DNA of 64,000 nt from Morganella psychrotolerans (GTDB lineage Bacteria; Pseudomonadota; Gammaproteobacteria; Enterobacterales; Enterobacteriaceae), in the NCBI RefSeq assembly GCF_001676055.1, contig NZ_LZEX01000006.1, positions 1-64,000 on the forward strand, given 5' to 3'. The position numbers were made by a program, and so were the translations under genes. Each line of letters begins with the position of its first letter. Positions within the stretch are counted from its first letter, which is position 1. The notes beneath the pieces are model-generated. The model did not search any database, was not told the origin of the DNA, and saw nothing but the letters and a program-made list of their open reading frames with translations. This document shows positions 1 to 30,583 of this stretch, in pieces.

Positions 1-405
1 CGGTTATGACCGATAAGCCTGCCTGAGTTAATTCCTGAGCGCAGGTCTTTTTCTCGGTCATCACCAGCCCTTTTTTGCGAAAAGCTCCTTCATAGCATGA
101 TTTTCCAGACTAACTTCCGCAAACAACCGCTTAAGCCTGGTATTTTCATCCTCAAGTTCTTTAAGCCTTTTAATATCAGCCGCTTCCATACCGCCATATT
201 TTGATTTCCAGTTATAATATGTGGCGTTACTGATCCCGTTCTGACGGCAAATTTCGTCGACCTTCATACCAGAGTCAGCCAGCTTTAAAATACTGACGAT
301 CTGCGTTTCGGTAAAACGTGCTTTTTTCATTATGACCTCTGCTGTTTTCAGGGCAGAAAATCTAATTATAGTTGTTTCATTTTAGGGGAAGTGGACAGAT
401 CGACA
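1..405 (-). mobile_element. IS3-family insertion sequence, partial (runs off the window start). orfA is at 61-330, the A6G slippery heptamer for -1 frameshifting lies at about 73-79, and the start of orfB is at <1-75. The terminal inverted repeat ends near 405 (TG...)
   Basis: OrfA has the HTH/leucine-zipper architecture typical of IS3/IS407-group OrfA proteins (MKKARFTETQIVSIL...YYNWKSKYGG...ENTRLKRL). An AAAAAAG motif sits at the orfA 3' end. The element interrupts an integrase reading frame. Confidence 0.8.
61..330 (-). CDS. IS3 family transposase OrfA (HTH DNA-binding subunit)
   Basis: The 89-aa ORF has strong similarity by eye to IS3/IS407-group OrfA proteins. Confidence 0.85.
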   Translation of the reverse strand: MKKARFTETQIVSILKLADSGMKVDEICRQNGISNATYYNWKSKYGGMEAADIKRLKELEDENTRLKRLFAEVSLENHAMKELFAKKGW

Positions 406-638
406 CCATTAGCTAACAGCTTACGGGCTTCATCTCGGCGTGCCCGGGCATCTGCCAGCGAGACTTCAGGGTATTTCCCCAGCGCCAGCATCTTCTCTTT
501 GCCGCCGAAGCGATAACGAAGTCGCCAGTATTTAGAACCGTTAGGGTGAACCAGCAATACCATACCGTCACTATCAGTGAGCTTATAGGCTTTTGCTTCC
601 GGCTTAGCCGAACGAACTTTCACATCACTCAGAGCCAT
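406..638 (-). pseudogene. P4-type tyrosine integrase, N-terminal ~78-aa fragment truncated by the IS insertion
   Basis: MALSDVKVRSAKPEAKAYKLTDSDG...YWRLRYRFGGKEKMLALGKYPEVSLADARARRDEARKLLANGVD is the canonical P4-integrase arm-binding N-terminus. The frame reads straight into the IS terminal sequence and stops. Confidence 0.8.
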
Positions 639-805
639 GATGAGTATCCTTTCAAGGGTTCTGTGTGGGTACAAACATTATCGAACCGGGATATACCCGC
701 AGATGTACCCACATCAGTAAGTTGATATAGATTGAATCAGGTTGACTTAGGTTGAGTGAAAAAGCGAGGTAAGCCTTGCAGATACTGGATTTTAGATACA
801 AAAAA

Positions 806-857: not shown

Positions 858-1139
858 CAAGTGCTGATATCTAATTGATTTAATAGAATATAACTATAAG
901 TCACGTAAAAACGACCAAGATATTGACCTTTCAGATAAAATATTTATGTATCCCTTTTCTATACAAGATAACTCTACTTTCTCTATGATAACTATCTATC
1001 GACACTACAGTTATTTTTTGTAAAAAGTCTTTAAATTAGTTGTTTATACCAAAATAGGGACCTAATTCATTAGACTACTTACAAAAAAAATCAAGATATA
1101 CTATAATAGTATAAGATTATTATATTAAAGGTAGCTAAT

Positions 1140-2629
1140 ATGAACTGGGAACAATTATTATCACCAAAAAGGTTACGTAATCCAACTACAAGCGCTAAAT
1201 TCGATTTAGATTGCAATAGAAATCAATATGAAAGTGATTTTGGTCGAGTAATCTTTAGTCCTGCATTACGCAGAATGCATGATAAAACACAAGTTTTTCC
1301 ATTAAATACAAATGATAATATTCATACAAGGCTGACTCATTCAATGGAAGTTATGTCTGTTGGATATTCACTAGGAATTGGGATCTGCAATCATGCTGAT
1401 TTCTTAAAAAGAATCAGCTCTCTAAAAGGGTCTTTTAATAAGAATATCTATAGAACCATTCCTGTAATATTAAAAAGCAGCTGTTTATTACACGATATTG
1501 GGAATCCCCCTTTTGGTCACTTTGGCGAAACTATAATACAAAATTACTTTCGAGAACTATTTGAAAAAAATAAAACAATATCTAGCGATATGACTTCGGA
1601 AGAAAGAAATGATTTTATAAATTTTGACGGTAATGCACAAGGCTTCCGAGTCATAACTAAGCTCCAAGCCTTAAATGATTTACATGGACTAAATTTAACC
1701 TCAGCAAGTTTAGCCTCATATTTAAAGTATCCAAATACAAATCCTCCAGATAAAAAAAGAATTGAGACAAAGAAAACAGGTGTTTTTTATTCAGAAAAAA
1801 AATACTTAGAGAAAGTATGTAAGGAATGCGGCCTGATAAATGAAGCAGACTTATTTTTGCGTCATCCATTAAGTTATTTAATGGAAGCAGCCGATTCAAT
1901 TTGCTATTCTGTAATTGATATTGAAGATGCTTTCAAAAAAGGAATAATAACTTTAAATGACATTCTAGAAGAGTTTAATAAAACCAAGTGTAAATTTGAA
2001 AAAGAAAACTTTGATTTATCAAACAACTCATTGGAATTAATAAACGAAGCTATTAACTATATAGATAATACAATTAAAAACACAGATGGTGAAAATAAAA
2101 AAAATTGTTGACATTAGAACTTATTTAATTGCTATTCTAGTTGACGACGCACTCAATAACTTCGCTAATAACTTAGATCAAATCGAAGCTGGTAATTATA
2201 ATAAAGAACTACTTGAGGATGGTAGATTAGCACCCTTAACAAAAGCACTACAAAATATAACTTGCTCTATAATCTTCCCATATAGAGAAATTGTTTCTTT
2301 GGAACTCGCTGGAGATTCTATATTAAAAGGAATATTCAATTATTATATTGGTTTGTTATTTTATGAACCTAAAGGGTTCGAAGAAGAAGATACCGAAATT
2401 GAAAAAATGAAAAGGAAGTATGCAAGCAAGGCCGAATCCATGATATCATCAAGCCTTGTACGTGTTGTAAAAAAAAGAACATGCAGAGGAATATGATTGC
2501 AACGAAAATATTCATATCGTTGAATTATCTACATATTTTAAGATAAAGTTAATTGTAGACTATGTTTCTGGAATGACTGATTTATTTGCAATTAATCATT
2601 ATCAAAAATTAAGTGGGCAGAAAATTTAA
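1140..2629 (+). pseudogene. dGTPase-family HD phosphohydrolase (Dgt-like dNTP triphosphohydrolase), read in three frames. It is interrupted twice, each time by a +1 shift inside an A8 run (~2096-2103 and ~2468-2475).
   Basis: The N-terminal part carries FSPALRRMHDKTQVFPL, HTRLTHSMEV, LLHDIGNPPFGHFGE, FDGNAQGFRV and LMEAADSICYSVIDIEDA, near-identical to E. coli Dgt motifs. The downstream frames continue the Dgt alignment through to YVSGMTDLFAINHYQKL (Dgt C-terminus). GC is about 28%. Confidence 0.8.
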
Positions 2630-2634
2630 ATATC

Positions 2635-3368
2635 ATGAAGAAAAACATTATAAAAGCTCATGAAAATGCATTCCATAAATATTTGGTGGATCGATTCCCT
2701 GACTTCACCAGCGAAATTATTGATGTATTATTAGAGGAAAAAAATGATGTTTTTCTTTTTAGTGGAATCATTAGAGATTACTTTTTACATAGAGATACGA
2801 AACTAGACTTCGATGTAAGAGATCTCGATATTGTAGTGCTTGATATTAACAAGTTCCAAAAAACCATTGGAAATAAAATAGAACATAAAAAAAAATTCAT
2901 TTGGTGGTTTGAAATTATATTTCAATGAAATTACTATCGATGTTTGGCAAACAAACTCAACATGGGGATTGAATCCTATAAAGGCGAATAAAATGGATTC
3001 TAATATAATCAACACTCTACCAGAAACGGTTTTTTTTTAATTGCTCATCTATTTTGTTTGACTTTCAAAATAAAACATTTATAGAGGATAATAATAATTA
3101 CTTCCAGTCTTTCATTGAAAGTAAAATATTAGATATCGTTCTAGAAGAAAACCCACTTCCAGAACTATGTATTTTGAATGCCATTTATTATACAAATACA
3201 TATGACTTAAAAATCAGTAAAAAACTAGCTAATTATGTAATGTCTACATTTTCAAAAATAAATAACGAACGATTTATAAAAGCTCAGCACAATCATTTTA
3301 ATAAAGTTATTTATGAAATAAATCAACTACAGAGAGAAATAGACAAATTGCTTACCAAAATAATTTAA
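2635..3368 (+). pseudogene. small Pol-beta superfamily nucleotidyltransferase of the CCA-adding/poly(A)-polymerase head-domain type, ~245 aa when three frames are joined. The frame shifts by +1 at an A9 run (2887-2895) and at a T9 run (3030-3038).
   Basis: The motif SGIIRDYFL...DFDVRDLDIVVLD resembles the GG.VRD...D.DIVT signature of PcnB/Cca head domains. Its start codon lies 5 nt after the dGTPase stop, so the two genes are probably translationally coupled. The call is tentative. Confidence 0.5.
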
Positions 3369-3523
3369 TTTATTATTAAAAGAACACATTAAACCGTACT
3401 ACATAAAATATATCTATATTTAAACACCGTTCTCATAGCTTTATTGATAGAATAAATAATAACATGTCTTTCACTAAAGTATCATTACAGTAAACCATAT
3501 TGCCTTTACCCCCCATAGCGGCT

Positions 3524-3568
3524 ATTCTAATGTTATCCCCCACAGGGGATATCATTGCAATATCCGCC
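3524..3568 (+). promoter_or_regulatory. two perfect HipB operator palindromes TATCC-N8-GGATA (3524-3541 and 3551-3568) just upstream of hipB
   Basis: They match the E. coli hipBA operator consensus exactly and overlap the predicted promoter. Confidence 0.8.
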
Positions 3569-3581
3569 ATAGGGGATAAAA

Positions 3582-3833
3582 ATGAAAGTCACATCACCGG
3601 CCGCACTGGCTAATGCAGTCAGAGATCAGCGAAAAATCAGTAAGATGAGTCAGACTCAGACTGCTGAGCTGATTGGTATCAAACAGACAACCGTTTCTGA
3701 TTTCGAGAACAAACCGGAATCCACTAAGCTGGAAACGTTGTTCAAAATCCTTGCTGCTCTGGACCTAGAGCTTCATGTTACGAAACGAGGCTCAACTCCG
3801 GATGAGAAAAAAACATGGAATAAGGAGTGGTAA
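3582..3833 (+). CDS. hipB: HipB antitoxin (Xre-family HTH)
   Basis: The 83-aa protein has the conserved ELIGIKQTTVSDFENKPE...LETLFKILAALDLEL stretch seen in E. coli HipB. It overlaps or abuts hipA. Confidence 0.9.
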   Translation: MKVTSPAALANAVRDQRKISKMSQTQTAELIGIKQTTVSDFENKPESTKLETLFKILAALDLELHVTKRGSTPDEKKTWNKEW

Positions 3834-3836
3834 GGG

Positions 3837-5147
3837 ATGAAAACACAGGCACTGACAGTCGCCATGAACGGCGATGTGGTAGGCACACTGTATCGGGATG
3901 GTACGGGTGCTATGTCATTCGAATACACGCCGGAATGGCTGTCTGAGCCCGGTTCCCGAGCTATTTCATTATCATTGCCCCTTCAGCACAACAGAATCAG
4001 GGGTAAGGAAGTATTTAATTTCTTCAGTAACCTGCTGCCGGATTCAGAGGTGATTATTGCCAGGATGCAGGCACGGTTCCATGTTGATACAACTCACCCG
4101 TTTGATCTGCTGGCAAGTGTCGGGCGTGACTGCGTGGGCGCAATTCAGTTGTATCCGTCGGGCAGTGACATTCCGTCTGTCATGGAAACACGGGCTGAGC
4201 CGCTGGATGATCATCAGATTGAAACACTGCTTGATGGCTATCAGACGGCACCTTTAGGGATGGAAGAAGGCGCTGATTTCCGGATTTCTTTAGCCGGAGC
4301 TCAGGAAAAAACAGCACTGCTCTGGTATCAGAACTGCTGGCAGCGACCACAAGGCAGTACACCTACCAGTCATATTTTTAAGCTCCCGATTGGGCGGATA
4401 GAACAGAATAATATCGACCTGCGGGAAAGCTGCGAAAATGAATGGCTGTGTTTGCGTATAGCCAAAGCATTTGGATTCCCGGCGGCTGATGCTGAATTAG
4501 CCGTATTTGGTCAGAAAAAGGTACTGATCGTCAGGCGCTTTGATCGGAAGTGGTCAGAGAATGGCTGGCTGATGCGGTTGCCTCAAGAGGATTTTTGCCA
4601 GGCTCTGGGAGTATCTCCGGCACTGAAATATGAGTCACATGGCGGTCCGGGAATAGCGGATGCAATGAATCTGTTGTTGGGCTCCCGCCTTGCCACACAA
4701 GACCGTGAATTATTTTTTAAATCACAGATTCTGTTCTGGATGCTGGCTGCAATTGATGGTCACGGGAAGAATTTCAGCCTGTTTATCGAGCCCGAAACAT
4801 CGTTCCGGATGACACCGCTTTATGATGTGATGTCTGCATTTCCTATTTTTGGCAGCAGGAGTATTCCGCTTAAAAAAGCCAAAATGGCAATGGCGTTATA
4901 CGGGAAAAATAAGCAGTATAATTTTGCGATGATACAGCCCCGGCATTTTATCAGTACCGCCGCACAAGTCGGATTTCCTCAGGATATTGCCCGTAAACTT
5001 ATGCTGGAAATGGCCTCTTACACAGGCACGGTGATCTCCACTGTAGCCACAGAGTTACCGGCTGATTTTCCGCAACACATCAGTGGCGCCATTTTCAAAG
5101 GGTTATCCGGGCAGGCTGCTAAAATCGTTAAATGGGTGCAAAATTAA
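3837..5147 (+). CDS. hipA: HipA serine/threonine-protein kinase toxin
   Basis: The 436-aa protein aligns along its full length with E. coli HipA (FNFFSNLLPDS, GAQEKTALL, RLPQEDFCQA, KYESHGGPGIA, DGHGKNFSLF). Confidence 0.95.
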   Translation: MKTQALTVAMNGDVVGTLYRDGTGAMSFEYTPEWLSEPGSRAISLSLPLQHNRIRGKEVFNFFSNLLPDSEVIIARMQARFHVDTTHPFDLLASVGRDCVGAIQLYPSGSDIPSVMETRAEPLDDHQIETLLDGYQTAPLGMEEGADFRISLAGAQEKTALLWYQNCWQRPQGSTPTSHIFKLPIGRIEQNNIDLRESCENEWLCLRIAKAFGFPAADAELAVFGQKKVLIVRRFDRKWSENGWLMRLPQEDFCQALGVSPALKYESHGGPGIADAMNLLLGSRLATQDRELFFKSQILFWMLAAIDGHGKNFSLFIEPETSFRMTPLYDVMSAFPIFGSRSIPLKKAKMAMALYGKNKQYNFAMIQPRHFISTAAQVGFPQDIARKLMLEMASYTGTVISTVATELPADFPQHISGAIFKGLSGQAAKIVKWVQN

Positions 5148-5656: not shown

Positions 5657-6146
5657 AGAGTACATGGTTTAATTATTAACCACTTGGCAGTAAAGCAATA
5701 TCACCTCCGGATAGTCCGGCTATTATATCCACTATGAATATAGTGCATAAAATATACTGATGAAGAATGAATATAATGAAAACAGGCAGATTGTTCATAT
5801 CGTTATTGATGCTATATCCGAAGATACTACCCTTTAAATAATTTCTCGGTATAGATACAGATTCCATCTGAATACGCTAATTCTGAATTCTTAATACAAA
5901 TCCCCATCCCAAAAAACTCAATCACCCGATCTACTCCGGAAACCTTCAAAACCCCAAATACAGTTGCTGATACAAATCATTAGCCACCTAATTCCGGGTA
6001 TTTCCTGGCTTTGCGGCAACGTTGCCTTTTTTAGCCATTTTCATGAAACGTAAACCCGCTTGAACCCGTCATCCGTTACCCCTACGTTTATACGCGTAAA
6101 ACCTGCTGTCAGTGACAGCCGCCAATGTTTCAATATCAATAAGATA

Positions 6147-6270
6147 TATACCCAACGTCATTCAAGTTGCAGGCAGGCGGCAAGCTCCGACCGCCGGGGA
6201 GCATACTGGTATGTGACCCGGCGGGTATCGTTCCGCCAACGAACCTGCTGTTTGAATGAATAAGGGTATA
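6147..6270. repeat. MITE-like repeat, copy 1 (~124 bp). It has imperfect terminal inverted repeats TATACCCAACGTCATTCAAG...CTGNTGTTTGAATGAATAAGGGTATA.
   Basis: It is about 85% identical to the copy at 47650-47775. A partial 5' end is also present at 41382-41408. Confidence 0.6.
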
Positions 6271-6772
6271 AGTGACCTGCAAGAAACGCCTTCGGGTGGC
6301 CGCAATACTCTTCCGTAATCCGGAAGAAACACCGTTAAAACCGAATCTCAGTGTCTGATATGTGCAGTTGACTGCGCTTTGCTATGCCTCAAGGGCATCT
6401 GCAAGCGCCTGTCCTGCTGCGCAGTGTTTAAGGCGTCACTTTTACGCCGCCGCACAGACTACTCTCAGCCCCTGAGATACACCGCTTACACAATCCGTCA
6501 TGCCTCTGACACCACAGTCAGCGTCTGATAAATCACCGGAAAGGAGACCACAACCACACTGAACCGATACCGGGAACGGGCTGCTCAGCCCGTGGGGATA
6601 TCCGCTCACGGACAGCCAAAGGCGAAAGCTGCACCCGTGCGGTACTGCGTGACGATATGAAAGCAATGGGATTTGATGTCTCCAAAAAGTTTTCCCGCTG
6701 GCTGGATAAGCTGGAAAAAGACAATCTGATCACATTGCGTGGCGAGGAAATTATCCCGCTGCCGTATCAGAC

Positions 6773-6990
6773 CAAAGTGGGGGACTAAACGGGGGAATGG
6801 TGGGGGAAGCCATCCGGAGCACCATAAAAACCGGTGTTTTCCCCACTTCGCAGTTATATATAGAACCTAAGTGGGGGCGATGCTGTAATTTCATAATAAA
6901 CATGCAGTTACGTTAAATTCCAAAAATGAGGTGGGGGAAGAAGTGGCACCCAGCTATGTGGGGGGCGAAGTGGGGGACGTTCTCACGTTT
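6773..6990. repeat. iteron-like array. It has at least 7 copies of RRGTGGGGG(A/C), one of them inverted, within ~220 bp, followed by an AT-rich tract (7080-7400).
   Basis: Copies are AAGTGGGGGA (6774), GGTGGGGGAAG (6799), inverted CCCCACTTCG (6843), AAGTGGGGGCG (6871), GGTGGGGGAAGAAGTGG (6929) and TGTGGGGGGCGAAGTGGGGGAC (6957-6978). The spacing and the neighbouring AT-rich DNA resemble a replication origin. Confidence 0.55.
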
Positions 6991-7558
6991 TTTCCCTGGC
7001 AGGCGCAGTTAAAACCTCGCTGATTTACAGACAACGCGTCAGTGCCGGTCATCTCAAATTTATAGTTGAGCCAGATATTTTTGATTGAAATTTTTCAGTG
7101 CCTGGGTATTTTATATTAGATTCGTAACGTAGCCGTACTAATCACCATGGATGAGATAATATTGATCGATACCATTTTTTTTTATTTATAAGCGCATTGA
7201 TTTTCTGGCAATTATTGTTTTTTCTCTGCTTGCACTTTGGCTTTCATCCATTTCATCAGGACGAATTTTAAGGCTTGCATTATTTTTGTTAGCGATACTA
7301 ATTATTACCCCTTATATTTTTGCCGCTGCTTATGTATTACTTATAATGTCCGTAAGCCTGATGTTTGCATATAACTAAAAATATACACACATCAATATTG
7401 CGCTTCTGATAGTTTATCTGCCGCTCTACCGCATCCCGTAACCACATAGCTACTTAGTCGTGCTGTATCCAATCTATCTACCCACACTAACAAATTTGCG
7501 CTCAGTCAGGTACCTGACAAAAACGATCACATCCGAAGGTTGTTTTTTATGCATGCAT

Positions 7559-7599: not shown

Positions 7600-7636
7600 C
7601 CCCGCTTTGTCACATGCGGAAAAATGGGAGGATCGT

Positions 7637-8278
7637 ATGCATACGCACAGTGCTGAAAGAGAAAGAAAAAAACCGGCTGTTTCATTTCATGCAAATGAGG
7701 TGCTGGCAAGCCGCGTCAGTCATCTTGTTTCATCCCTTTTTGCTGATTTTGACGATAAATCTCTGGTATCTGAAATCATGGTACTGGAAGACCTTGAGTT
7801 GCTGGTTTACGTTGTAAATGCTTATCTGCAAAAGAAAACGCGGATGAATGATCGCGAAATGGAGATGTTCAAAGCCAGAATTCAGGCTACAGTCAGATTT
7901 TATCAGAAGCTGGATAAGCTGGGCGGTACTGTAAAAGCGAAAGAGGTCAGTGAGTTGCTGGGAGTGACACGGCAAACCGTTAATAATCATGTTAACAAAG
8001 GCAAGCTGATTGCAGTACGTCGTGGCGGTGATTATCTGTTCCCTGTCTTTCAGTTTAAGGGGTCAGAAATGCTCCCTCATCTGGACGATATTCTGCTGTG
8101 TCTGCCGCCGGAAACGGATGCAACGGCACGGGTTTCATTCCTGACCAACCCGGTTCGAGTTGATAATAAAAATCCTGTAAAAACACCGCTTGAGATCCTC
8201 AGTGACAATCCTTCCGATGAAAAAATAGCACTGTTACGCCGCGAGGCTACACTTTTCGCCAATCAGATGGCATCATAA
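7637..8278 (+). CDS. Xre/MbcA/ParS-like antitoxin with an HTH plus a C-terminal DUF2384 toxin-binding domain, and an unusually long N-terminal region
   Basis: The HTH is VSELLGVTRQTVNNHVNKGKLIAVRRGGDYLFP. The C-terminal FLTNPVRVDNKNPVKTPLEILSDNPSDEKIALLRREATLFA matches the DUF2384 consensus. The ORF-track start at 7607 uses TTG; the ATG at 7637 has a GGGAGGA RBS. Confidence 0.7.
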   Translation: MHTHSAERERKKPAVSFHANEVLASRVSHLVSSLFADFDDKSLVSEIMVLEDLELLVYVVNAYLQKKTRMNDREMEMFKARIQATVRFYQKLDKLGGTVKAKEVSELLGVTRQTVNNHVNKGKLIAVRRGGDYLFPVFQFKGSEMLPHLDDILLCLPPETDATARVSFLTNPVRVDNKNPVKTPLEILSDNPSDEKIALLRREATLFANQMAS

Positions 8279-8320
8279 AAGGGTTCACCGGCCCAGACAG
8301 ACCGGTGAACCATAACAGCA

Positions 8321-8968
8321 TTAAAGCGTCACATCGAAGTGCAGTATTTTCACCAGCATCTCCTCTGCCGTGATGTCCTTATAAGGCCAGCCGACAGGCA
8401 GAAACTGATGCTCTGTATACTTACTGAGTGATTCACACGCCAGGGTTTTAAACAACTTTCCCTCTTCCGGTTCAAACACTGCGAGGCACATCCCCGCAAG
8501 ATAGTGGCGGCTTGCATAACGGATACCATGGAAATCCCGCTCCGGATCATTTGCCAGACAACCCGTGATAGCCTGCGTCAGTGTGTAGTCAACACCGGTC
8601 AGTTGATCCGCTGTCAAATGCAACATAGACGCAAGAGTCGCCATATCAACCAATCGCAGCGGGAATACCGGATGCAACGTGTACATCTGAGCAATCTCCA
8701 GACTGCTGCCGGATATCGCAAAATGCCCGCGACCATGGTGATACATCCTGCCATAACTTTCTGCCAGTGCTGTCAGGCTGTTCTCTGCGAAATAGCATAC
8801 CCCGGTATTACCGGACAGATCGTTATAGCGCCCCATATCATCCGGTTTTGTTGGTTTCCCGTAATGTTCCGCTGACGGATAGTGTTTTCCCTGAAAGCGC
8901 TTCACATCCAGATCAAAACCTAAAACAGGTAATTTCCCATTATGGCAAAGCTGGGTCAGTTGTTCCAA
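8321..8968 (-). CDS. RES-domain toxin (NAD+-targeting Res/MbcT/ParT family)
   Basis: The protein carries GRYNDLSGNTGVCYFAENSLTALAE and FHGIRYASRH motifs with the conserved R, E and S positions. It is convergent with the DUF2384 gene, 42 bp apart. Confidence 0.75.
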   Translation of the reverse strand: MEQLTQLCHNGKLPVLGFDLDVKRFQGKHYPSAEHYGKPTKPDDMGRYNDLSGNTGVCYFAENSLTALAESYGRMYHHGRGHFAISGSSLEIAQMYTLHPVFPLRLVDMATLASMLHLTADQLTGVDYTLTQAITGCLANDPERDFHGIRYASRHYLAGMCLAVFEPEEGKLFKTLACESLSKYTEHQFLPVGWPYKDITAEEMLVKILHFDVTL

Positions 8969-9261: not shown

Positions 9262-10521
9262 TTATCCGATCTCAAACTCATACGGCACCACAAACTCCCG
9301 GCTGACTGCATCCAGGTAATCACCCCACCATTGCATTATCAGTTTTCGTTCCACAATGTGTTCGGCTTTGTGAATATAGGCGGCGCGGACGGCATTGCGC
9401 TCCTGGTGGCTCATCTGCCGCTCTATCGCATCCCGTGACCATTTTCCTGATTCAATCAGTGCGCTGCACGCCATGGTGCGAAAACCATGACCGCACAGCT
9501 CCTTAGCAGTGTCGTATCCCATCGTCCGCAGGGCATTGTTCACCGTGTTCTCACTCATCGGTTTTATCAGGCTATGGTCGCCCGGGAAGAGCAGCTCGCC
9601 CTCTCCGCTTATTGTCCTGATTTCTGCCAGAACGGCCAGTGTCTGGCGCGACAGCGGCACAATATGCTCTGACTGCATTTTTGCACCACGATAGGAGAAT
9701 TTCACACCGGGAATCGGCGTACGCTCTGCCGGAATTATCCAGATGGCGCGTTCTGTGTCGAATTCAGACCAGCGGGCAAGACGGATTTCACTGGAGCGCG
9801 AAAACGTCAGCAGCGTAAACTGTATCGCCAGTTTGGTTAACCGGCGGCCGTTGTAATAATCCAGCTTTGTCAGCAGCTCCGGCAGCCGTTCCAGCCGCAG
9901 CGCCGGGCGGTGGGTCACACGCGGCGGCATCAGTGCTCCGGCCATGTCCTTCGCAGGATTGCGATCAATCACGCCGCACTGAACCGCATATCCCATGATA
10001 TCCGTGATCCGCTGCTTCAGCCGCGAGGCCAGCTCCAGACGATCATTCGCCTCTACAATCCGCAGCGGTACCAGTAAATCTTTGGTTTTCAGTTCCGCAA
10101 CATGCCGCTGACCTATCGCCGGGAGAATATGCTTTTCCATATCGCGCCAGATACGGTTAGCGTGCGTCTCTGACCAGCGCCGCCGTCTGAGCATCTGCTG
10201 CGACCATTCTCGCGCCATTTTCTCAAAGGTATTCAGCGCATCCTCTTCGGCTTCCTTCTCCGCGATACGCTTCTGCTTCGGGTGAATACCATCCAGTATC
10301 ATCAGACGGGCTTCATCGCGTTTATCACGGGCGCGTGACAGTGAAACCAGCGGATATGCGCCGAATGCTATCCGGCTCTCTTTGCCGTTGTATGCAAACT
10401 TAAAATACCAGCGCTTTGTACCAACCGGATTTACCTGAAGATAAAGGCCGTACTCGTCGGCCAGTTTGTACATCTTTTTACCAGGTTTTGCGTTCCTTGC
10501 TGCCATGTCACTTAATGCCAT
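9262..10521 (-). CDS. int: P4-type tyrosine integrase/recombinase, full length
   Basis: The 419-aa protein has a DUF4102 arm-binding N-terminus (MALSDMAARNAKPGKKMYKLAD...) and a catalytic C-terminal domain. It lies 1.9 kb from tRNA-Leu on the same strand. Confidence 0.95.
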   Translation of the reverse strand: MALSDMAARNAKPGKKMYKLADEYGLYLQVNPVGTKRWYFKFAYNGKESRIAFGAYPLVSLSRARDKRDEARLMILDGIHPKQKRIAEKEAEEDALNTFEKMAREWSQQMLRRRRWSETHANRIWRDMEKHILPAIGQRHVAELKTKDLLVPLRIVEANDRLELASRLKQRITDIMGYAVQCGVIDRNPAKDMAGALMPPRVTHRPALRLERLPELLTKLDYYNGRRLTKLAIQFTLLTFSRSSEIRLARWSEFDTERAIWIIPAERTPIPGVKFSYRGAKMQSEHIVPLSRQTLAVLAEIRTISGEGELLFPGDHSLIKPMSENTVNNALRTMGYDTAKELCGHGFRTMACSALIESGKWSRDAIERQMSHQERNAVRAAYIHKAEHIVERKLIMQWWGDYLDAVSREFVVPYEFEIG

Positions 10522-10971: not shown

Positions 10972-11707
10972 TTACCAATTTATATTAAAGATGTATCCTT
11001 CCAGCACAAGGGTAATAATTACAATAAATAATACAACCATTCCGCCAACTCCGAATGTCTTAAATCTACATTTCTGCCCACACTTAAATATAAAAAAGAA
11101 GAAACCAGTTTGGTTTTTATTCGCTAATGCATAGGCTAACTCAATAAAAGAAGATATGTGTATTAAAATAATGGAAATACTTATCAATATTGCAGATGAT
11201 ATTATAGAAAGAGAAAGATTCTTCCCATGTCCATTTAATTTCGCCCAGAATTTACTGGCAGAATCAACCTCCCTGGCAACATTAAGAATATCCTGAGGAA
11301 TTAGCCCATTGACTTTTCCATTTAATGAAAAAATTATCACTGCCAATACACCCATTAATAACCATCTTATAACATCAACACGTTCGGCTTCCTTGTTAGT
11401 AAATAAAATTAATAATCCAATAAATGCTAATACGGGTGACGTTACAGCTCCCCATGTTAATACAGAATATACTTGTTCATAATAACTAAAAAAAAAGCCA
11501 TGCTAAGAGACTGACTATGAATATTACTGCAACGGCACTGCCTACAACGATAGGATTGCCATCACTATCTGTTGATTTTTTGTGATTATTATTGATGGTT
11601 TTGTTAATTACTTGGGTGTTTTGAATATTGTAGCCACCACTGTTACTCTGAACAACGTTAATATTATCTGTGTTATTCTTGATGTTTATATCTGCAAATC
11701 TTCCCAT
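10972..11707 (-). pseudogene. Asn-rich membrane protein of unknown function, given as two ORFs of 73 and 127 aa. The frames fuse into ~245 aa if the A9 run at 11488-11496 were A8.
   Basis: Manual translation shows an open frame linking the two ORFs across the homopolymer. It has an Asn-rich N-terminus and at least 4 hydrophobic helices. Confidence 0.4.
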
Positions 11708-12373
11708 ATTTTTCTATTCCATCTAAGTGGATGACAATAATGAAATACATTTATGCCGTACTAATTATACGAAACACATACCTGTGATGTTACCTTCGAT
11801 ATTAAATAAACACAAAGCATGCCTATTTTTACAAAACAATCAATGAGTTAAAAATAATAAAATGATTAGAACACTAAAAAATCACTCATTAACTACCTTT
11901 ATTAGTAGTCAATCTGGTAACTCATTTTTAGTGAATATAATCTATTAAGGATATCGGAACAATAAATTAAAAGCTCATCAGAGCTAATAATCTAGCTGTA
12001 TATCTTTATGCATCCATGTAACCTGTTTTCTACTCTGAGTTCAATGTCACCAACGCTTCATGCCACTGGTTCCGGATGTTACTTGGCTAGCATGACTATA
12101 TATCCCCAAAGTTTTTAATCCGTATGGACGAAAATATCTAAAAGTAGATGGTTCTTTTTACCTGAATATTTATAACACCAACACCGGGTCAAAAAACCGC
12201 GTCGCAAAGTTGACCCCGTCAAAACCGTTTTTTTGCCCGGATGACGCCCGGACAGCAACAGACCTACCGAAGCGCGTTACACGAACCGGTAATTGGAAAT
12301 TAAAATGTTATTTTACATAAACTTACAAACAAGAAAGGCGGCTAAAAACAGCCGGATAGCGAATTTCAGGCAC

Positions 12374-12396: not shown

Positions 12397-12413
12397 TTGA
12401 TTTCACTTAAGAA

Positions 12414-12495
12414 TGCCGAAGGCCGGAATCGAACCGGCACGCCCTAAAGCGGTTGATTTTGAATCAACTGCGTCTACCAATTCCGCCACTCCGGC
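12414..12495 (-). tRNA. leuX: tRNA-Leu (anticodon CAA), the leuX homologue. Its 3' end is reconstituted from island sequence and no CCA is encoded (the 3' trailer is TTC).
   Basis: It is 82 nt and matches E. coli leuX (GCCGGAGTGGCGGAATTGGTAGACGCAGTTGATTCAAAATCAACC...GTGCCGGTTCGATTCCGGCCTTCGGCA). The anticodon loop is TTCAAAA. Confidence 0.9.
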
Positions 12496-12523
12496 ACTGA
12501 AGTGTGTTCTCGATAACGGCGTT

Positions 12524-28209: not shown

Positions 28210-28298
28210 GCCCTCTGATAAGTGATACCCGCGCATTTTCCCACAGCAGGCGTCATTGAGCCACCCATAAAAAAAAAAGAATTTCAGTCCGGTGTTGC

Positions 28299-28339
28299 AA
28301 TTGAATTTTTATTGATTTATGTTGAATATAAATTCATCG
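28299..28339 (+). promoter_or_regulatory. tandem ARG boxes (ArgR operator: TTGAATTTTTATTGA, 3-bp gap, TTGAATATAAATTCA) overlapping the argI promoter
   Basis: They match the TNTGAATWWWWATTCANW consensus at 21-bp spacing. Confidence 0.65.
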
Positions 28340-28350
28340 GAGGAATTACT

Positions 28351-29364
28351 ATGAACCCTTTTTATCAACAATCCTTTCTGCGGTTACTTGACTATAAACC
28401 CGCCGATATTGAAAAACTGCTCAATCTTTCTGCTTATCTGAAAAAGGCGAAAAAATCCGGTACTGAAAAGCCGCTGATGACAGGTAAAAATATTGCGCTG
28501 ATTTTCGAGAAGGACTCCACCCGCACCCGCTGTGCCTTTGAAGTGGGCGCTTACGATCAGGGTGCGCGGGTAACTTACCTCGGTTCATCCGGCAGTCAGA
28601 TGGGCCATAAAGAATCCATTAAAGACACTGCCCGCGTGCTGGGACGGATGTATGACGGTATTCAGTTTCGCGGATATTCACAGAAAGCGGTTGAAGAGCT
28701 GGCAAAATATTCCGGTGTTCCGGTCTGGAACGGACTGACAGATGAGTTTCATCCGACACAACTGCTCGCCGACCTGCTGACTATTCAGGAGCATGTGAAA
28801 AAACCGCTGTCCGAGGTGAAATTTGCATATTTAGGCGATTCCCGTAATAACATGGGAAATACCATTGCAGAGATGGCAGCACTGACCGGGATGGATGTCC
28901 GGCTTGTCGCACCACAAAGTTGCTGGCCGTCTGCATCACTGATTGAAGAGTGCCGTAAAGCCGCAGAACAAACCGGCGGTAAAATTACGCTGACGGAAGA
29001 TGTCGCCGAAGGCGTAAAAGATGCCGATGTACTGTATACCGATGTCTGGGTTTCAATGGGCGAGGCGAAAGAGGTCTGGGCGGAGCGCATCAAACTGCTG
29101 ACACCGTATCAGGTGAATCAGGATGTGATTACTAAAACACAGAATCCGGATGTGATTTTCCTGCATTGCCTGCCTGCATTCCATGATACCGACACCACCA
29201 TCGGACTGGCGCTTGCAAAAGAATATGGTTTTACCAATGGTATTGAAGTCACCAATGATGTGTTTGAGTCAAAACACAGTGTGGTATTTGATCAGGCCGA
29301 AAACCGGCTGCATTCGATTAAAGCTATTATGGTGGCATCTCTTTCAAAAGAAATAGAATTTTAA
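28351..29364 (+). CDS. argI: ornithine carbamoyltransferase
   Basis: The protein has the STRTR motif and is full-length similar to E. coli ArgI/ArgF. The ORF-track 5' extension is spurious. Confidence 0.95.
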
Positions 29365-29471
29365 TTATATCGGGATAATCGCAGGTATTTTGCGTAAAAA
29401 AAAGTGATGCAAACGCTTGCGCAGAATAACAGGTTGCGTATAATCCCCCGCAATTTTGTCGGAAGGGGAAA

Positions 29472-29600
29472 ATGTACAGCGTGACTATTTACACCGCTTA
29501 CATCGCACAGTCGGTGCCGCACAACGCGGCATATCACAGACAGCCACAACGTGGCGCAGTCTGCGTTCCTCCCGTATTTTTTTTGAAAACCCCTCATTGA
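29472..29600 (+). CDS. pyrL: pyrBI operon leader peptide (42 aa)
   Basis: The ORF has an AAGGGGA RBS. It crosses a U-rich pause region and ends inside the attenuator hairpin. Confidence 0.75.
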
Positions 29601-29615
29601 GGGGTTTTTTTTTTG
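29585..29615 (+). terminator. pyrBI attenuator (AAAACCCCTCA-TT-GAGGGGTTTT + T-run), 33 nt before pyrB
   Basis: Classic UTP-sensing attenuator architecture. Confidence 0.8.
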
Positions 29616-29647
29616 CCTGGCCGAACACGAACATGAGGATACCCCCA

Positions 29648-30583
29648 ATGGCGAATCCGTTATACCTGCGCGATATTATCTCGATTAATGACCTTAACCG
29701 CGATGAACTGGAACTGGTATTAAACACAGCCGCACTGCTGAAACAGCGCCCTCGGCCGGAATTACTGAAGCATAAAGTAATTGCCAGCTGCTTCTTCGAG
29801 GCCTCGACGCGTACCCGGCTCTCTTTTGAAACGGCTATCCACCGCCTCGGCGCGTCGGTAGTCGGTTTCTCAGACAGCAGCAACACCTCACTGGGCAAAA
29901 AAGGGGAAACGCTGGCAGATACCATGAGTGTTATCAGTCAGTATGCTGATGCCATCGTGATGCGCCACCCGCAGGAAGGTGCGGCGCGCCTGGTGTCTGA
30001 ATTTTCAGGTACTGTGCCGGTTATCAATGCCGGGGACGGGGCAAACCAGCACCCGACACAGACACTGCTTGATCTCTTTACCATTCAGGAAACCCAGGGA
30101 CGCCTGGAAAACCTGCACATCGCGATGGTCGGGGATCTGAAATACGGGCGCACAGTGCATTCACTGGCACAGGCGCTGTCGAAATTCAGCGGCAACCATC
30201 TGCATTTTATTGCACCAAAGGCGCTGGCGATGCCGGATCATATCCTGCACATGCTGGATGAAAAAGGTGTGGCGTACAGCGAACATAATGCTATCGATGA
30301 TGTGCTGCCGCAGTTGGATATTCTGTACATGACCCGCGTACAGAAAGAGCGTCTTGACCCGTCAGAATACGCCAATGTCAAAGCACAGTTTGTACTGCGC
30401 GCGGCGGATCTGGTGAATGTGAAGCCAAACCTGAAAGTGCTGCACCCGCTGCCGCGCATCGATGAGATCTCTCCGGATGTGGATAAAACGCCTTACGCGT
30501 ACTACTTCCCGCAGGCCGGTAACGGGATTTTTGCCCGTCAGGCGCTGTTATCTCTGGTGTTAAACGAAACCTTCCCGGCTTAA
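29648..30583 (+). CDS. pyrB: aspartate carbamoyltransferase catalytic subunit
   Basis: The 311-aa protein (MANPLY..STRTR..HPTQ..HPLPR) matches PyrB. The 375-aa ORF in the track is a 5' artefact. Confidence 0.95.

Follow-up and report, generated by a model that had tools for sequence, protein, structure and literature searches.

A probable Clover-type dGTPase–nucleotidyltransferase operon in a tRNA-Leu-associated island of Morganella psychrotolerans

Stand-alone dGTPases, for example SpdGTPase of Shewanella putrefaciens (PADLOC "dGTPase", NCBIfam NF041026), reportedly act against phage, as Tal et al. are said to have described in 2022. The two-gene system Clover, characterised in Salmonella enterica SA20044414 and E. 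coli H5, combines a dGTPase, CloA, with a nucleotidyltransferase (NTase), CloB (Yamaguchi et al., bioRxiv 2025, PMC12265719; its Nature 2026 version is Nature 652:978, as cited in PMC13434031). CloA is activated by dTTP, which phage infection raises, and is inhibited by the CloB product p3diT, a small dinucleotide that binds CloA and restrains its dGTPase activity; loss of CloB alone is toxic (PMC12265719). About 650 CloB homologues have been published. Hailong and Panoptes/MISS are also defences held off by an inhibitory nucleotide, oligodeoxyadenylate in the first case and 2′3′-c-di-AMP in the second (PMC12265719). A 2026 study of octameric dGTPases (PMC13519002) makes no reference to Clover or to NTases.

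We analysed a 64,000-nucleotide stretch of the Morganella psychrotolerans genome (the window), near the start of which a dGTPase gene is followed by a small NTase gene. The original prediction described these as a low-GC (~28%) two-gene block in an island with two toxin-antitoxin systems. The composition computed from the sequence agrees, with a GC content of 0.289 at 1140–3368 and 0.287 at 860–3570, compared with 0.478 for the entire window and 0.483 for the neighbouring hipBA, and both toxin-antitoxin systems (hipBA and RES/HTH, the latter spanning 7607–8968) are real. The features of the island are as follows.

840–853 (strand not assigned): copy of the tRNA-Leu 3′ end, 14 nt exact and 18/20 when extended; likely an att remnant bounding the island
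860–3570 (strand not assigned): low-GC block (28.7% GC) with the two-gene module, from the composition profile; distal end of the tRNA-Leu-associated genomic island
1078–1107, + strand: promoter-like site 5′ of the dGTPase gene (CTTACA, 18-nt spacer, TATAAT); consensus match only, 10/12
1140–2629, + strand: CloA-like dGTP triphosphohydrolase, 495 aa after repair (one A removed from each of the runs 2097–2104 and 2469–2476)
2097–2104, + strand: A8 run, A7 in intact homologues; first +1 shift of the dGTPase gene
2469–2476, + strand: A8 run, A7 in the closest homologue; second +1 shift of the dGTPase gene
2635–3368, + strand: CloB-like minimal NTase, 243 aa after repair (one base removed from each of the runs 2887–2895 and 3030–3038)
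2887–2895, + strand: A9 run, A8 in intact homologues; first +1 shift of the NTase gene, within the conserved KKNSFGG
3030–3038, + strand: T9 run, T8 in the closest homologue; second +1 shift of the NTase gene, within the conserved TVFFN
3582–5147: hipBA toxin-antitoxin system, adjacent to the module
8321–8968, − strand: RES toxin, with an HTH partner at 7607–8278
9262–10521, − strand: integrase, in the same island as the module
12413–12496: tRNA-Leu(CAA), the 3′ end of which is copied at 840–853

The match between 840–853 and the 3′ end of tRNA-Leu(CAA) had an E-value of 2.7e-4 (blastn-short, 300 × 300 nt). The island of the module also contains an integrase, hipBA and a RES toxin, a setting of the defence-island or mobile-element kind associated with Clover. 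An Rfam scan gave no match within the island, and megablast of 900–3560 against complete E. coli genomes gave none either. Promoter-like sites in the region are no more numerous than expected from shuffled sequence. The spacer of the one upstream of the dGTPase gene contains an A8 run (1083–1090) that is A7 in the closest homologue; with A7 here, the spacer would be 17 nt. Taken as a whole, the best explanation, to which we assign a probability of roughly 0.75, is that the block represents a diverged operon of the Clover type, serving defence against phage, which reached a tRNA-Leu-associated island of M. psychrotolerans by horizontal transfer.

The dGTPase gene is spread over three frames by +1 shifts at its two A8 runs. 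As originally proposed, the repaired protein is a Dgt-family dGTPase with intact catalytic HD motifs: it scored 325.6 bits against TIGR01353 (cut-off 152.35, E 6e-97), matched the PADLOC dGTPase model with E 5.6e-66, and its metal ligands and HE dyad (H67, H118, D119, H127, E130 and D252) are invariant in 64/64 members of its clade. Residues H67, H118, D119, D252, H127 and E130 align to H69, H117, D118, D242, H126 and E129 of CloA. The best sequence match in the PDB is Salmonella CloA (9p8t; octamer entries 9p8s–v) with E 1.9e-65 and 32% identity, and SpdGTPase (9p8w) is a far weaker match (E 2.8e-25). The bit scores are 224.8 for CloA, 212.8 for 3bg2 and 212.3 for E. coli Dgt, and on sequence the protein is no nearer to CloA than to stand-alone dGTPases. 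It is 24 aa longer than CloA and has N273 in place of H263 of the CloA octamer interface, a position that varies in the clade.

Against NCBIfam, the protein reached 177.7 bits for the anti-phage dGTPase model NF041026 (cut-off 400), 392.5 bits for the housekeeping equivalog NF002205 (cut-off 439) and 351.4 bits for NF003429 (cut-off 405), so we file it under none of them. Like the stand-alone anti-phage enzymes, it belongs to the HD-domain dGTP triphosphohydrolases, lies in a defence context and would act by dNTP depletion; unlike them, its family always comes with an NTase, as a neighbour or as a fusion partner, and its NF041026 score is less than half of the cut-off. The resemblance to housekeeping dGTPases (E. 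coli Dgt, 4x9e; Leeuwenhoekiella blandensis, 3bg2/7tu0) extends to TIGR01353 membership, fold, catalytic residues and scores close to that of CloA. We nevertheless rejected a housekeeping role, given the scores below the equivalog cut-offs, the low-GC island and the obligate linkage to a CloB-like NTase.

The NTase gene is also spread over three frames, and its intact homologues are 243–248 aa long. The head signature predicted earlier, GG.(V/I)RD...D.DIVV, is right as to a head-type Pol-beta NTase but not as to the GG, which reads SG (FSGIIRD...RDLDIVV). D63, D65 and D102 are the predicted catalytic carboxylates. In the homologue alignment the invariant residues are G44, D63, D65, N87, G90, G91, K93, D102 and W104, with D63 and D65 present in 42/42. 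An AF2 model of the joined protein (pLDDT 89.1, pTM 0.87) has the Pol-beta fold that had been anticipated, in the form of a CCA-enzyme head: the top Foldseek matches in the PDB are 3h3a/3h39 (E 5e-10, TM 0.66 on the query), and the best 45 comprise only class II CCA-adding enzymes and poly(A) polymerase. The model covers only the head and neck of these 342–517 aa targets (415–425 aa for the eight best). The protein shares with the CCA-adding enzymes and poly(A) polymerase (PF01743) the Pol-beta head and neck fold and the GxxRD and DxD signature. It differs from class II CCA-adding enzymes in having no body or tail, no significant Pfam match, about 15% identity, and a different partner and context.

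Searches of the repaired NTase gave nothing at E ≤ 1 in Pfam, no meaningful match in PADLOC 2.0.0, NCBIfam or PHROGs, and nothing significant among PDB sequences with either the single sequence or the profile; no CloB chain surfaced there. Direct comparison with Salmonella CloB (L078:6370-7203, catalytic D71/D73) was clear. The family profile (A1) aligned to it over 200 columns (hhalign 99.6%, E 5e-24), the family HMM scored 123 bits (E 1.1e-30, Z = 1.84e9), and pairwise BLASTP gave 26% identity with E 4e-16. By these profile and pairwise comparisons the window NTase family is homologous to CloB. The homology covers nearly the full length, and the GxIRD, DxD, KNxFGG and IDxW motifs are common to both. 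At 50% identity and E ≤ 1e-3, the CloB family comprises about 1,800 clusters, including a big Bacteroidota-centred clade. Salmonella CloB itself has no match in PADLOC, which is therefore blind to Clover beyond the dGTPase.

The combination of a dGTPase with an NTase, which the original prediction did not recognise from any described system, is already known: it is the CloA and CloB pair of Clover. The hunch that the two genes form a defence module was right. With Clover meanwhile described and its structure determined, what the window contributes is one more member and no new principle. The arrangement is that of Clover, with two co-oriented genes, dGTPase then NTase, in a mobile or defence island. 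Differences are the low identity (26% to CloB, 32% to CloA) and the gene junction, which is a 5-nt spacer between the dGTPase TAA and the NTase ATG here, a 17–20 nt overlap in Bacteroidota relatives and a 47-nt overlap in Salmonella Clover. The two genes, originally described as translationally coupled, thus lie close together with no overlap. The window clade is dominated by Bacteroidota, absent from the taxa named in the Clover preprint.

Linkage of the two genes, for which a survey of other genomes had been proposed, proved to be nearly universal. A co-oriented dGTPase gene adjoins the NTase homologue in 76/77 loci, from Bacteroidota, Ignavibacteria, Chlorobiaceae, Acidobacteriota, Spirochaetota, Lachnospiraceae and Morganellaceae. 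Overlaps of 17–20 nt are found in most pairs, two loci have the genes in the opposite order, and in L057 and L064 NTase and dGTPase are fused as one ORF. The closest intact pair (L080) encodes proteins of exactly 495 and 243 aa. Some lineages carry the NTase as part of a fusion with a complete type IIG restriction-methyltransferase. These natural fusions, to the dGTPase and to type IIG RM enzymes, are independent genetic evidence for a regulator–effector relationship and also hint at coupling to restriction-modification. The relatives, too, lie in a defence context, with type I RM, Abi_2, a P4-like integrase/primase, a Bil-type ubiquitin-like system, dCTP deaminase, type II MTases and MADS among their neighbours. 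We compared 112 nearest-neighbour ORFs with PADLOC and Pfam, as counts per family. Immediate neighbours in the Bacteroidota loci are mixed, with RM, MADS and IS recurrent, but peptidase S46 and DnaA recur too, and some of these loci have housekeeping neighbours.

By analogy with the Salmonella and E. coli systems, the CloB-like NTase would be the regulator, constitutively making a short 5′-triphosphorylated deoxy-dinucleotide. Bound in an allosteric pocket at the CloA dimer interface, this dinucleotide would keep the dGTPase inactive as long as the cell is uninfected. Once a phage raises the level of a dNTP (dTTP in the systems characterised so far), that dNTP would fill the adjacent activator pocket, override the inhibitor and switch on the dGTPase, the presumed effector, which would hydrolyse dGTP and starve phage DNA replication. 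The anti-phage activity, the regulatory logic and the ligand identity of the window pair are thus proposed by homology only. This logic, in which a constitutive NTase product holds an effector off, would resemble that of Hailong and Panoptes/MISS, which have other NTase families, effectors and triggers.

We compared the ligand pockets of CloA with the window dGTPase and its clade, using an alignment of 32% identity. In the activator (dTTP) pocket, CloA R47/D61/Q172/K256/S418/N420/A444/T449/Y452 correspond to R45/D59/Q176/K266/S436/S438/Y474/T479/F482 of the window. R47, D61, Q172, S418 and T449 (CloA numbering) are invariant in the clade, most members of which have N at K256, S at N420 and F or Y at A444, a main-chain contact in CloA; Y452 is F or Y. 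E. coli Dgt differs from CloA at 61 and 172, where the window dGTPase, like CloA, has D and Q. The inhibitor (p3diT) pocket of CloA is formed by T25, R29, R34, D37, R38, F41, N75, N181, Q311 and R314. The clade keeps R29, R38, F41, N181 and R314, and replaces R34 by S and D37 by G (each in 61/64), and Q311 by V and N75 by S or A (each in 51/64). In E. coli Dgt the sites equivalent to 34, 37, 38, 181 and 314 are occupied by S, G, R, N and R. Dgt therefore shares the S and G of the window clade, and as it also has R38, N181 and R314, their conservation tells little.

The window dGTPase resembles CloA in its metal ligands and HE dyad and, going by this alignment, would keep most dTTP-pocket residues and the phosphate half of the p3diT pocket. 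Q311, D37 and N75 read the two thymine bases of p3diT in CloA; with these base-specific contacts replaced, binding of p3diT by the window dGTPase is unsupported, and with four pocket residues replaced across the clade the signal may differ. It is conceivable, if somewhat unlikely, that the pair has the architecture and logic of Clover with different chemistry, in which the inhibitor is not p3diT and the activator perhaps not dTTP. Replacement of Q311, D37, N75 and R34 next to the conserved phosphate-binding R29, R38, N181 and R314 points this way, as do the 26% identity to CloB and the changes at K256, N420 and A444 of the activator pocket. Against it, D61 and T449, which read thymine in the activator pocket, do not vary, nor do R47, Q172 and S418, and inference about pockets from an alignment of 32% identity is weak. 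We would put forward with similar caution that the pair represents a distinct, mainly Bacteroidota-borne Clover subtype that moved into Morganellaceae, in which the NTase makes and the dGTPase reads a non-p3diT inhibitor, some lineages having been wired into other immunity by fusion. The Bacteroidota-centred CloB clade, with its differing predicted inhibitor pocket, is a lead to a second Clover signal.

The reading of the block as a Clover-type operon concerns two genes that are interrupted in the assembly as given. The interruptions are, as first described, solely +1 shifts in A8/A9/T9 runs, two per gene. Once a single base is taken out of each run, the two ORFs become continuous, with 495 and 243 aa, and align end to end with intact homologues, and the invariant motifs KNSFGG and FFN span repaired junctions. 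Draft genomes of M. psychrotolerans were sequenced with Ion PGM only (PMC5026451). A fifth +1 shift, at 11488–11496, is the sole difference over 1,439 aligned positions from an independent Logan contig with an unbroken ORF. Compared with L080, the dN/dS values are 0.10 and 0.12 and hold evenly for the segments that precede, separate and follow the shifts, which indicates that both genes are under purifying selection. On this indirect evidence, the four +1 frameshifts are most likely Ion Torrent homopolymer over-calls, and the operon is probably intact in the organism.

The alternative is genuine decay, in which real slipped-strand insertions recently inactivated a Clover pair, leaving pseudogenes with no phenotype in this strain. 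The two frameshifts per gene in the assembly would be taken at face value, and the fragments are annotated publicly as separate hypothetical proteins. In exact look-ups, neither the repaired 495-aa nor the 243-aa protein occurred in any independent assembly of the collection, and the window dGTPase fragment and HipA returned nothing on record in the contig index. Moreover, other runs of at least 8 nt in apparently coding sequence are in frame (1795, 5543 and 39254), so over-calling is not universal. However, each of the five frameshifts in the 12-kb island is a +1 shift within a homopolymer of 8 nt or more, an independent contig that otherwise matches perfectly lacks one of them, and Ion PGM was the sole platform. 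The genes contain no nonsense codons or other lesions, and dN/dS stays near 0.1 beyond the shifts. As loss of CloB alone is reported to be toxic (PMC12265719), stepwise decay would also need to strike the dGTPase gene first. We consider decay improbable. Ion Torrent drafts can split genes of low-GC islands by homopolymer over-calls and leave them annotated as fragments, and such annotations call for caution.

Phase variation, with the A/T tracts as contingency tracts that toggle the operon by slippage, is very improbable. Long homopolymers do lie within both genes, with one more in the promoter spacer, and the close homologue L080 keeps A7–A8 and T8 tracts. Four tracts are simultaneously out of frame, unlike contingency loci; they encode lysine and phenylalanine in a gene of 29% GC; and distant homologues break the A runs (CAAAAAA, TAAAAAA, AATAAAAA) and the T run (TGTTTTTT, TTTTCTTT). 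The Ion PGM data offer a technical explanation as well.

The earlier suggestion of a defence role had named both the nucleotide pool and RNA 3′ ends as targets. Nucleotide-pool defence is the best reading, and none of the results favours RNA tailing. That the small NTase is an abortive-infection toxin tailing the 3′ ends of tRNA or mRNA, with the dGTPase as a second, independent effector, has hardly any probability: its fold is nearest to tRNA CCA-adding enzymes and poly(A) polymerase, and UniRef labels one homologue and one of the window fragments "Poly A polymerase head domain-containing", but it lacks the tRNA-binding body and tail domains (243 versus ~400 aa), it is specifically homologous to CloB (E 1e-30) when the best CCA-enzyme match of its profile in the PDB is 3h37 at E 0.19, and loss of CloB in Clover is toxic rather than protective, its product being a CloA-bound dinucleotide (PMC12265719). 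The obligate pairing and fusion with the dGTPase fit a regulator–effector pair.

The module lies in a block of low GC content (0.289 over 1140-3368 and 0.287 over 860-3570, against 0.478 for the whole window and 0.483 for the neighboring hipBA), as the original prediction had stated. ORF listing and three-frame translation also bear out the predicted gene calls and the +1 shifts in A8, A9 and T9 runs:

1140-2629 (+), gene 1, dGTPase, in three frames, with +1 shifts at A8 2097-2104 and A8 2469-2476
2635-3368 (+), gene 2, nucleotidyltransferase (NTase), in three frames, with +1 shifts at A9 2887-2895 and T9 3030-3038

Five nucleotides separate the TAA of gene 1 from the ATG of gene 2. Removal of one base per run yields uninterrupted ORFs of 495 aa (gene 1) and 243 aa (gene 2), fragments of which, by exact protein look-up, stand as separate hypothetical proteins in the annotation of the source draft, from Morganella psychrotolerans (locus tags AYY17_).

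Judged by its sequence, the repaired gene 1 product is a dGTP triphosphohydrolase, matching TIGR01353 with 325.6 bits (cut-off 152, E = 6e-97) and the PADLOC dGTPase model with E = 5.6e-66. The metal ligands and HE dyad (H67, H118, D119, D252, H127 and E130) are unchanged in 64 of 64 relatives, in keeping with the Dgt-family enzyme with catalytic residues that had been proposed. The protein scores below the curated thresholds of the two housekeeping equivalogs and also of the anti-phage dGTPase model in NCBIfam, and is thus a separate lineage.

No Pfam, PADLOC, NCBIfam or PHROGs model matches the repaired 243-aa NTase. However, intact full-length homologs of 243-248 aa exist, with identities of 90% (one metagenomic sequence), 83% (Morganella morganii), 65% (Providencia) and about 40% (many Bacteroidota), and a full-library profile search with the family recovered 1,799 cluster representatives at E ≤ 1e-3 and 370 at E ≤ 1e-30. 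Residues unchanged in an alignment of 42 sequences include G44, D63, D65, N87, G90, G91, K93, D102 and W104. Both repaired junctions fall within conserved motifs of this alignment, KNSFGG and FFN, which validates the repair. The AlphaFold2 model built from the alignment (pLDDT 89.1, pTM 0.87) matched class II CCA-adding enzymes and poly(A) polymerase in a Foldseek search of the PDB, so the predicted "minimal CCA/poly(A)-polymerase-head" NTase is correct as a statement of fold. The best match was 3h3a (E = 4.5e-10, TM 0.66 on the query, ~15% identity). Coverage was limited to the head and neck regions of the targets, which are 342-517 aa long (the eight best, 415-425 aa).

The predicted pairing recurs in other genomes. 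Among 77 loci (69 from a conserved-peptide scan with one genome per species, and eight from exact proteins), a dGTPase homolog directly adjoins the NTase on the same strand in 76; at the sole unpaired locus, L061, a contig end cuts the NTase. The genes overlap by 17 or 20 nt in most Bacteroidota and are separated by 5 nt in Morganellaceae, as in the window, and their order is flipped in L018 and L038. Single polypeptides with the NTase first occur in two Bacteroidales MAGs (L057:5869-8097, 742 aa; L064:434-2590, 718 aa), giving Rosetta-stone support for the two activities acting together. Together, adjacency kept across phyla, variation in gene order and the fusions give strong evidence that dGTPase and NTase form a functional unit.

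In four genomes of Flavobacteriia or other Bacteroidota, the NTase (first ~240 aa) is instead fused in one ORF of 1,257-1,277 aa to a full-length type IIG restriction enzyme-methyltransferase (PADLOC REase_MTase_IIG, E = 1.7e-197):

L011:5920-9693, NTase-type IIG fusion
L017:5875-9690, NTase-type IIG fusion
L029:5890-9723, NTase-type IIG fusion
L051:5890-9720, NTase-type IIG fusion

All four overlap the dGTPase gene upstream of them by 20 nt, and a ~210-aa ORF without a family match occupies a conserved position downstream of them.

The two-gene Clover operon pairs the dGTPase CloA with an accessory NTase, CloB (PMC12265719; later published as Nature 652:978, as cited in PMC13434031). CloA by itself is inactive, and its activator is dTTP, whose level is raised by T5-like phages; the CloB product p3diT (5'-triphosphothymidyl-3'5'-thymidine) occupies an adjacent allosteric pocket and suppresses CloA, and inactivation of CloB leads to toxicity (PMC12265719). 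The top PDB sequence match of the window dGTPase is to the eight-chain entries 9p8s-v (E = 1.9e-65), whose sequence is that of Salmonella CloA (100% match to P0044). On a Salmonella contig, the gene downstream of cloA encodes 277 aa with the D71 and D73 given for CloB (PMC12265719). The window NTase aligns with this CloB at 26% identity over 212 residues (BLASTP, E = 4e-16), its family profile matches CloB with 99.6% probability (hhalign, E = 5e-24, 200 columns), and its HMM scores CloB at 123 bits (E = 1.1e-30 in a library of 1.84 billion proteins). The two NTases share the motifs (F/Y)xFxG(I/L)IRD, D(I/L)D(I/L)V, KNxFGGx(K/R), IDxW and TW(A/G). The window dGTPase is 32% identical to CloA but about as near to E. 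coli Dgt or 3bg2, so it is mainly the NTase and the architecture that support assignment to Clover. On these comparisons we assign the module to the known Clover kind, as a new and divergent member. The original prediction was right to propose a defense module, but its view of the gene combination as unrecognized has been overtaken by the Clover work, and the suggested targeting of RNA 3' ends is unsupported.

We mapped the CloA ligand-contact residues (PMC12265719) onto an alignment of 64 members of the clade of Bacteroidota and Morganellaceae relatives, eight canonical CloA relatives and E. coli Dgt. In the activator pocket, R47, D61, Q172, S418 and T449 are unchanged across the clade, whereas E. 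coli Dgt has A at position 61 and M at 172. At position 452 (Y in CloA) the clade has F or Y; N and S mostly take the place of K256 and N420, although the window retains K at 256. In the inhibitor pocket, the clade retains F41 and the phosphate-binding R29, R38, N181 and R314, but R34 is S in 61 of 64 members and the thymine-reading residues are swapped (D37 to G in 61 of 64, Q311 to V in 51 of 64, N75 to S or A). The combination of S34 and G37 is also seen in E. coli Dgt. Because the activator residues are largely kept and the thymine readers replaced, a Clover-type regulatory logic is plausible for the window's module, but recognition of p3diT specifically by the clade's dGTPase is not supported. 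The most interesting remaining point, on which the NTase fusions also bear, is whether the clade uses a different nucleotide signal; at present we regard a signal other than p3diT as a tentative proposal, less likely than not.

The frameshifts are most likely a technical artifact (probability about 0.85), judging the four module runs from homologs and from a fifth run in the window. Each of the four coding runs is longer by exactly one base in the window than in L080, the contig with the closest intact pair (88% DNA identity). Beyond these and one extra base in the non-coding A run at 1083-1090, there are only two indels, a 3-nt in-frame difference in the NTase gene and a 1-nt difference at ~3422, past its stop codon, and they shift no frame. 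The fifth +1 shift, in the 9-nt run at 11488-11496, splits a 244-aa predicted membrane protein (10972-11710, minus strand). The repaired protein was found exactly, with its ORF intact, in an independent Logan assembly (L082, SRR28822593), whose 1,438-nt contig differs from the window only in having this run one base shorter. Ion Torrent sequencing is prone to homopolymer-length errors. The M. psychrotolerans drafts were assembled with SPAdes from Ion PGM 400-bp reads only (PMC5026451), and the species, 2016-style accessions and locus tags suggest that the window comes from one of the three drafts of that study. Genuine recent decay at the four module runs is improbable; relative to L080, the dGTPase has a dN/dS of 0.10 and the NTase one of 0.12, and the values are alike before, between and after the shifts.

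Ahead of the dGTPase gene, the best promoter-like site has in its spacer the non-coding A8 run at 1083-1090, which again exceeds its L080 counterpart by one base; should the extra base be an over-call, 17 nt instead of 18 would separate the -35 and -10 elements. Three long runs (A10 28269-28278, T8 29577-29584 and T10 29605-29614) precede the conserved domains of two carbamoyltransferase genes:

28222-29364, OTCase-family ORF
29456-30583, OTCase-family ORF

These runs are probably in leader or attenuator regions rather than coding sequence, and so do not test the idea of homopolymer error.

The island that holds the module at its far end is delimited by a tRNA gene and a likely att remnant:

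840-853, 14-nt exact copy of the tRNA-Leu(CAA) 3' end
7607-8278 (+), HTH_17-domain protein
8321-8968 (-), RES-domain (NAD+ phosphorylase) toxin, convergent with the preceding gene
9262-10521 (-), integrase
12413-12496, tRNA-Leu(CAA)

The island also carries hipBA and a DUF1240 protein; with the convergent HTH_17/RES pair, hipBA accounts for the two predicted toxin-antitoxin systems. The 29% GC content of the module and its Bacteroidota-dominated family suggest horizontal acquisition. Neighbors of its relatives include type I restriction-modification, Abi_2, a P4-like integrase/AlpA/primase module and a Bil-type ubiquitin-like system. In L080, a 545-aa dCTP deaminase defense gene (L080:668-2305, minus strand; PADLOC dCTPase, E = 3e-165) adjoins the pair, placing two nucleotide-depletion systems side by side. 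Among the 112 nearest flanking ORFs of species-level loci, restriction-modification subunits, MADS and IS21 genes recur, but so do peptidase S46 and DnaA; the defense-island signal is thus clear but not universal.

To the left of 840-853, an integrase N-terminal fragment and an IS3-type transposase orfA-like ORF, at 61-330 (-) and 366-674 (-), suggest tandem or decayed islands at tRNA-Leu(CAA). Within a stretch of 50-54% GC that lacks a long ORF (~5,960-7,000), about seven iteron-like GTGGGGG(A/C) direct repeats occur at 6770-6980. An Rfam scan found no match at these repeats, which adjoin a 43-aa ORF (6657-6788) and may be what is left of a replication origin of the satellite or plasmid type.
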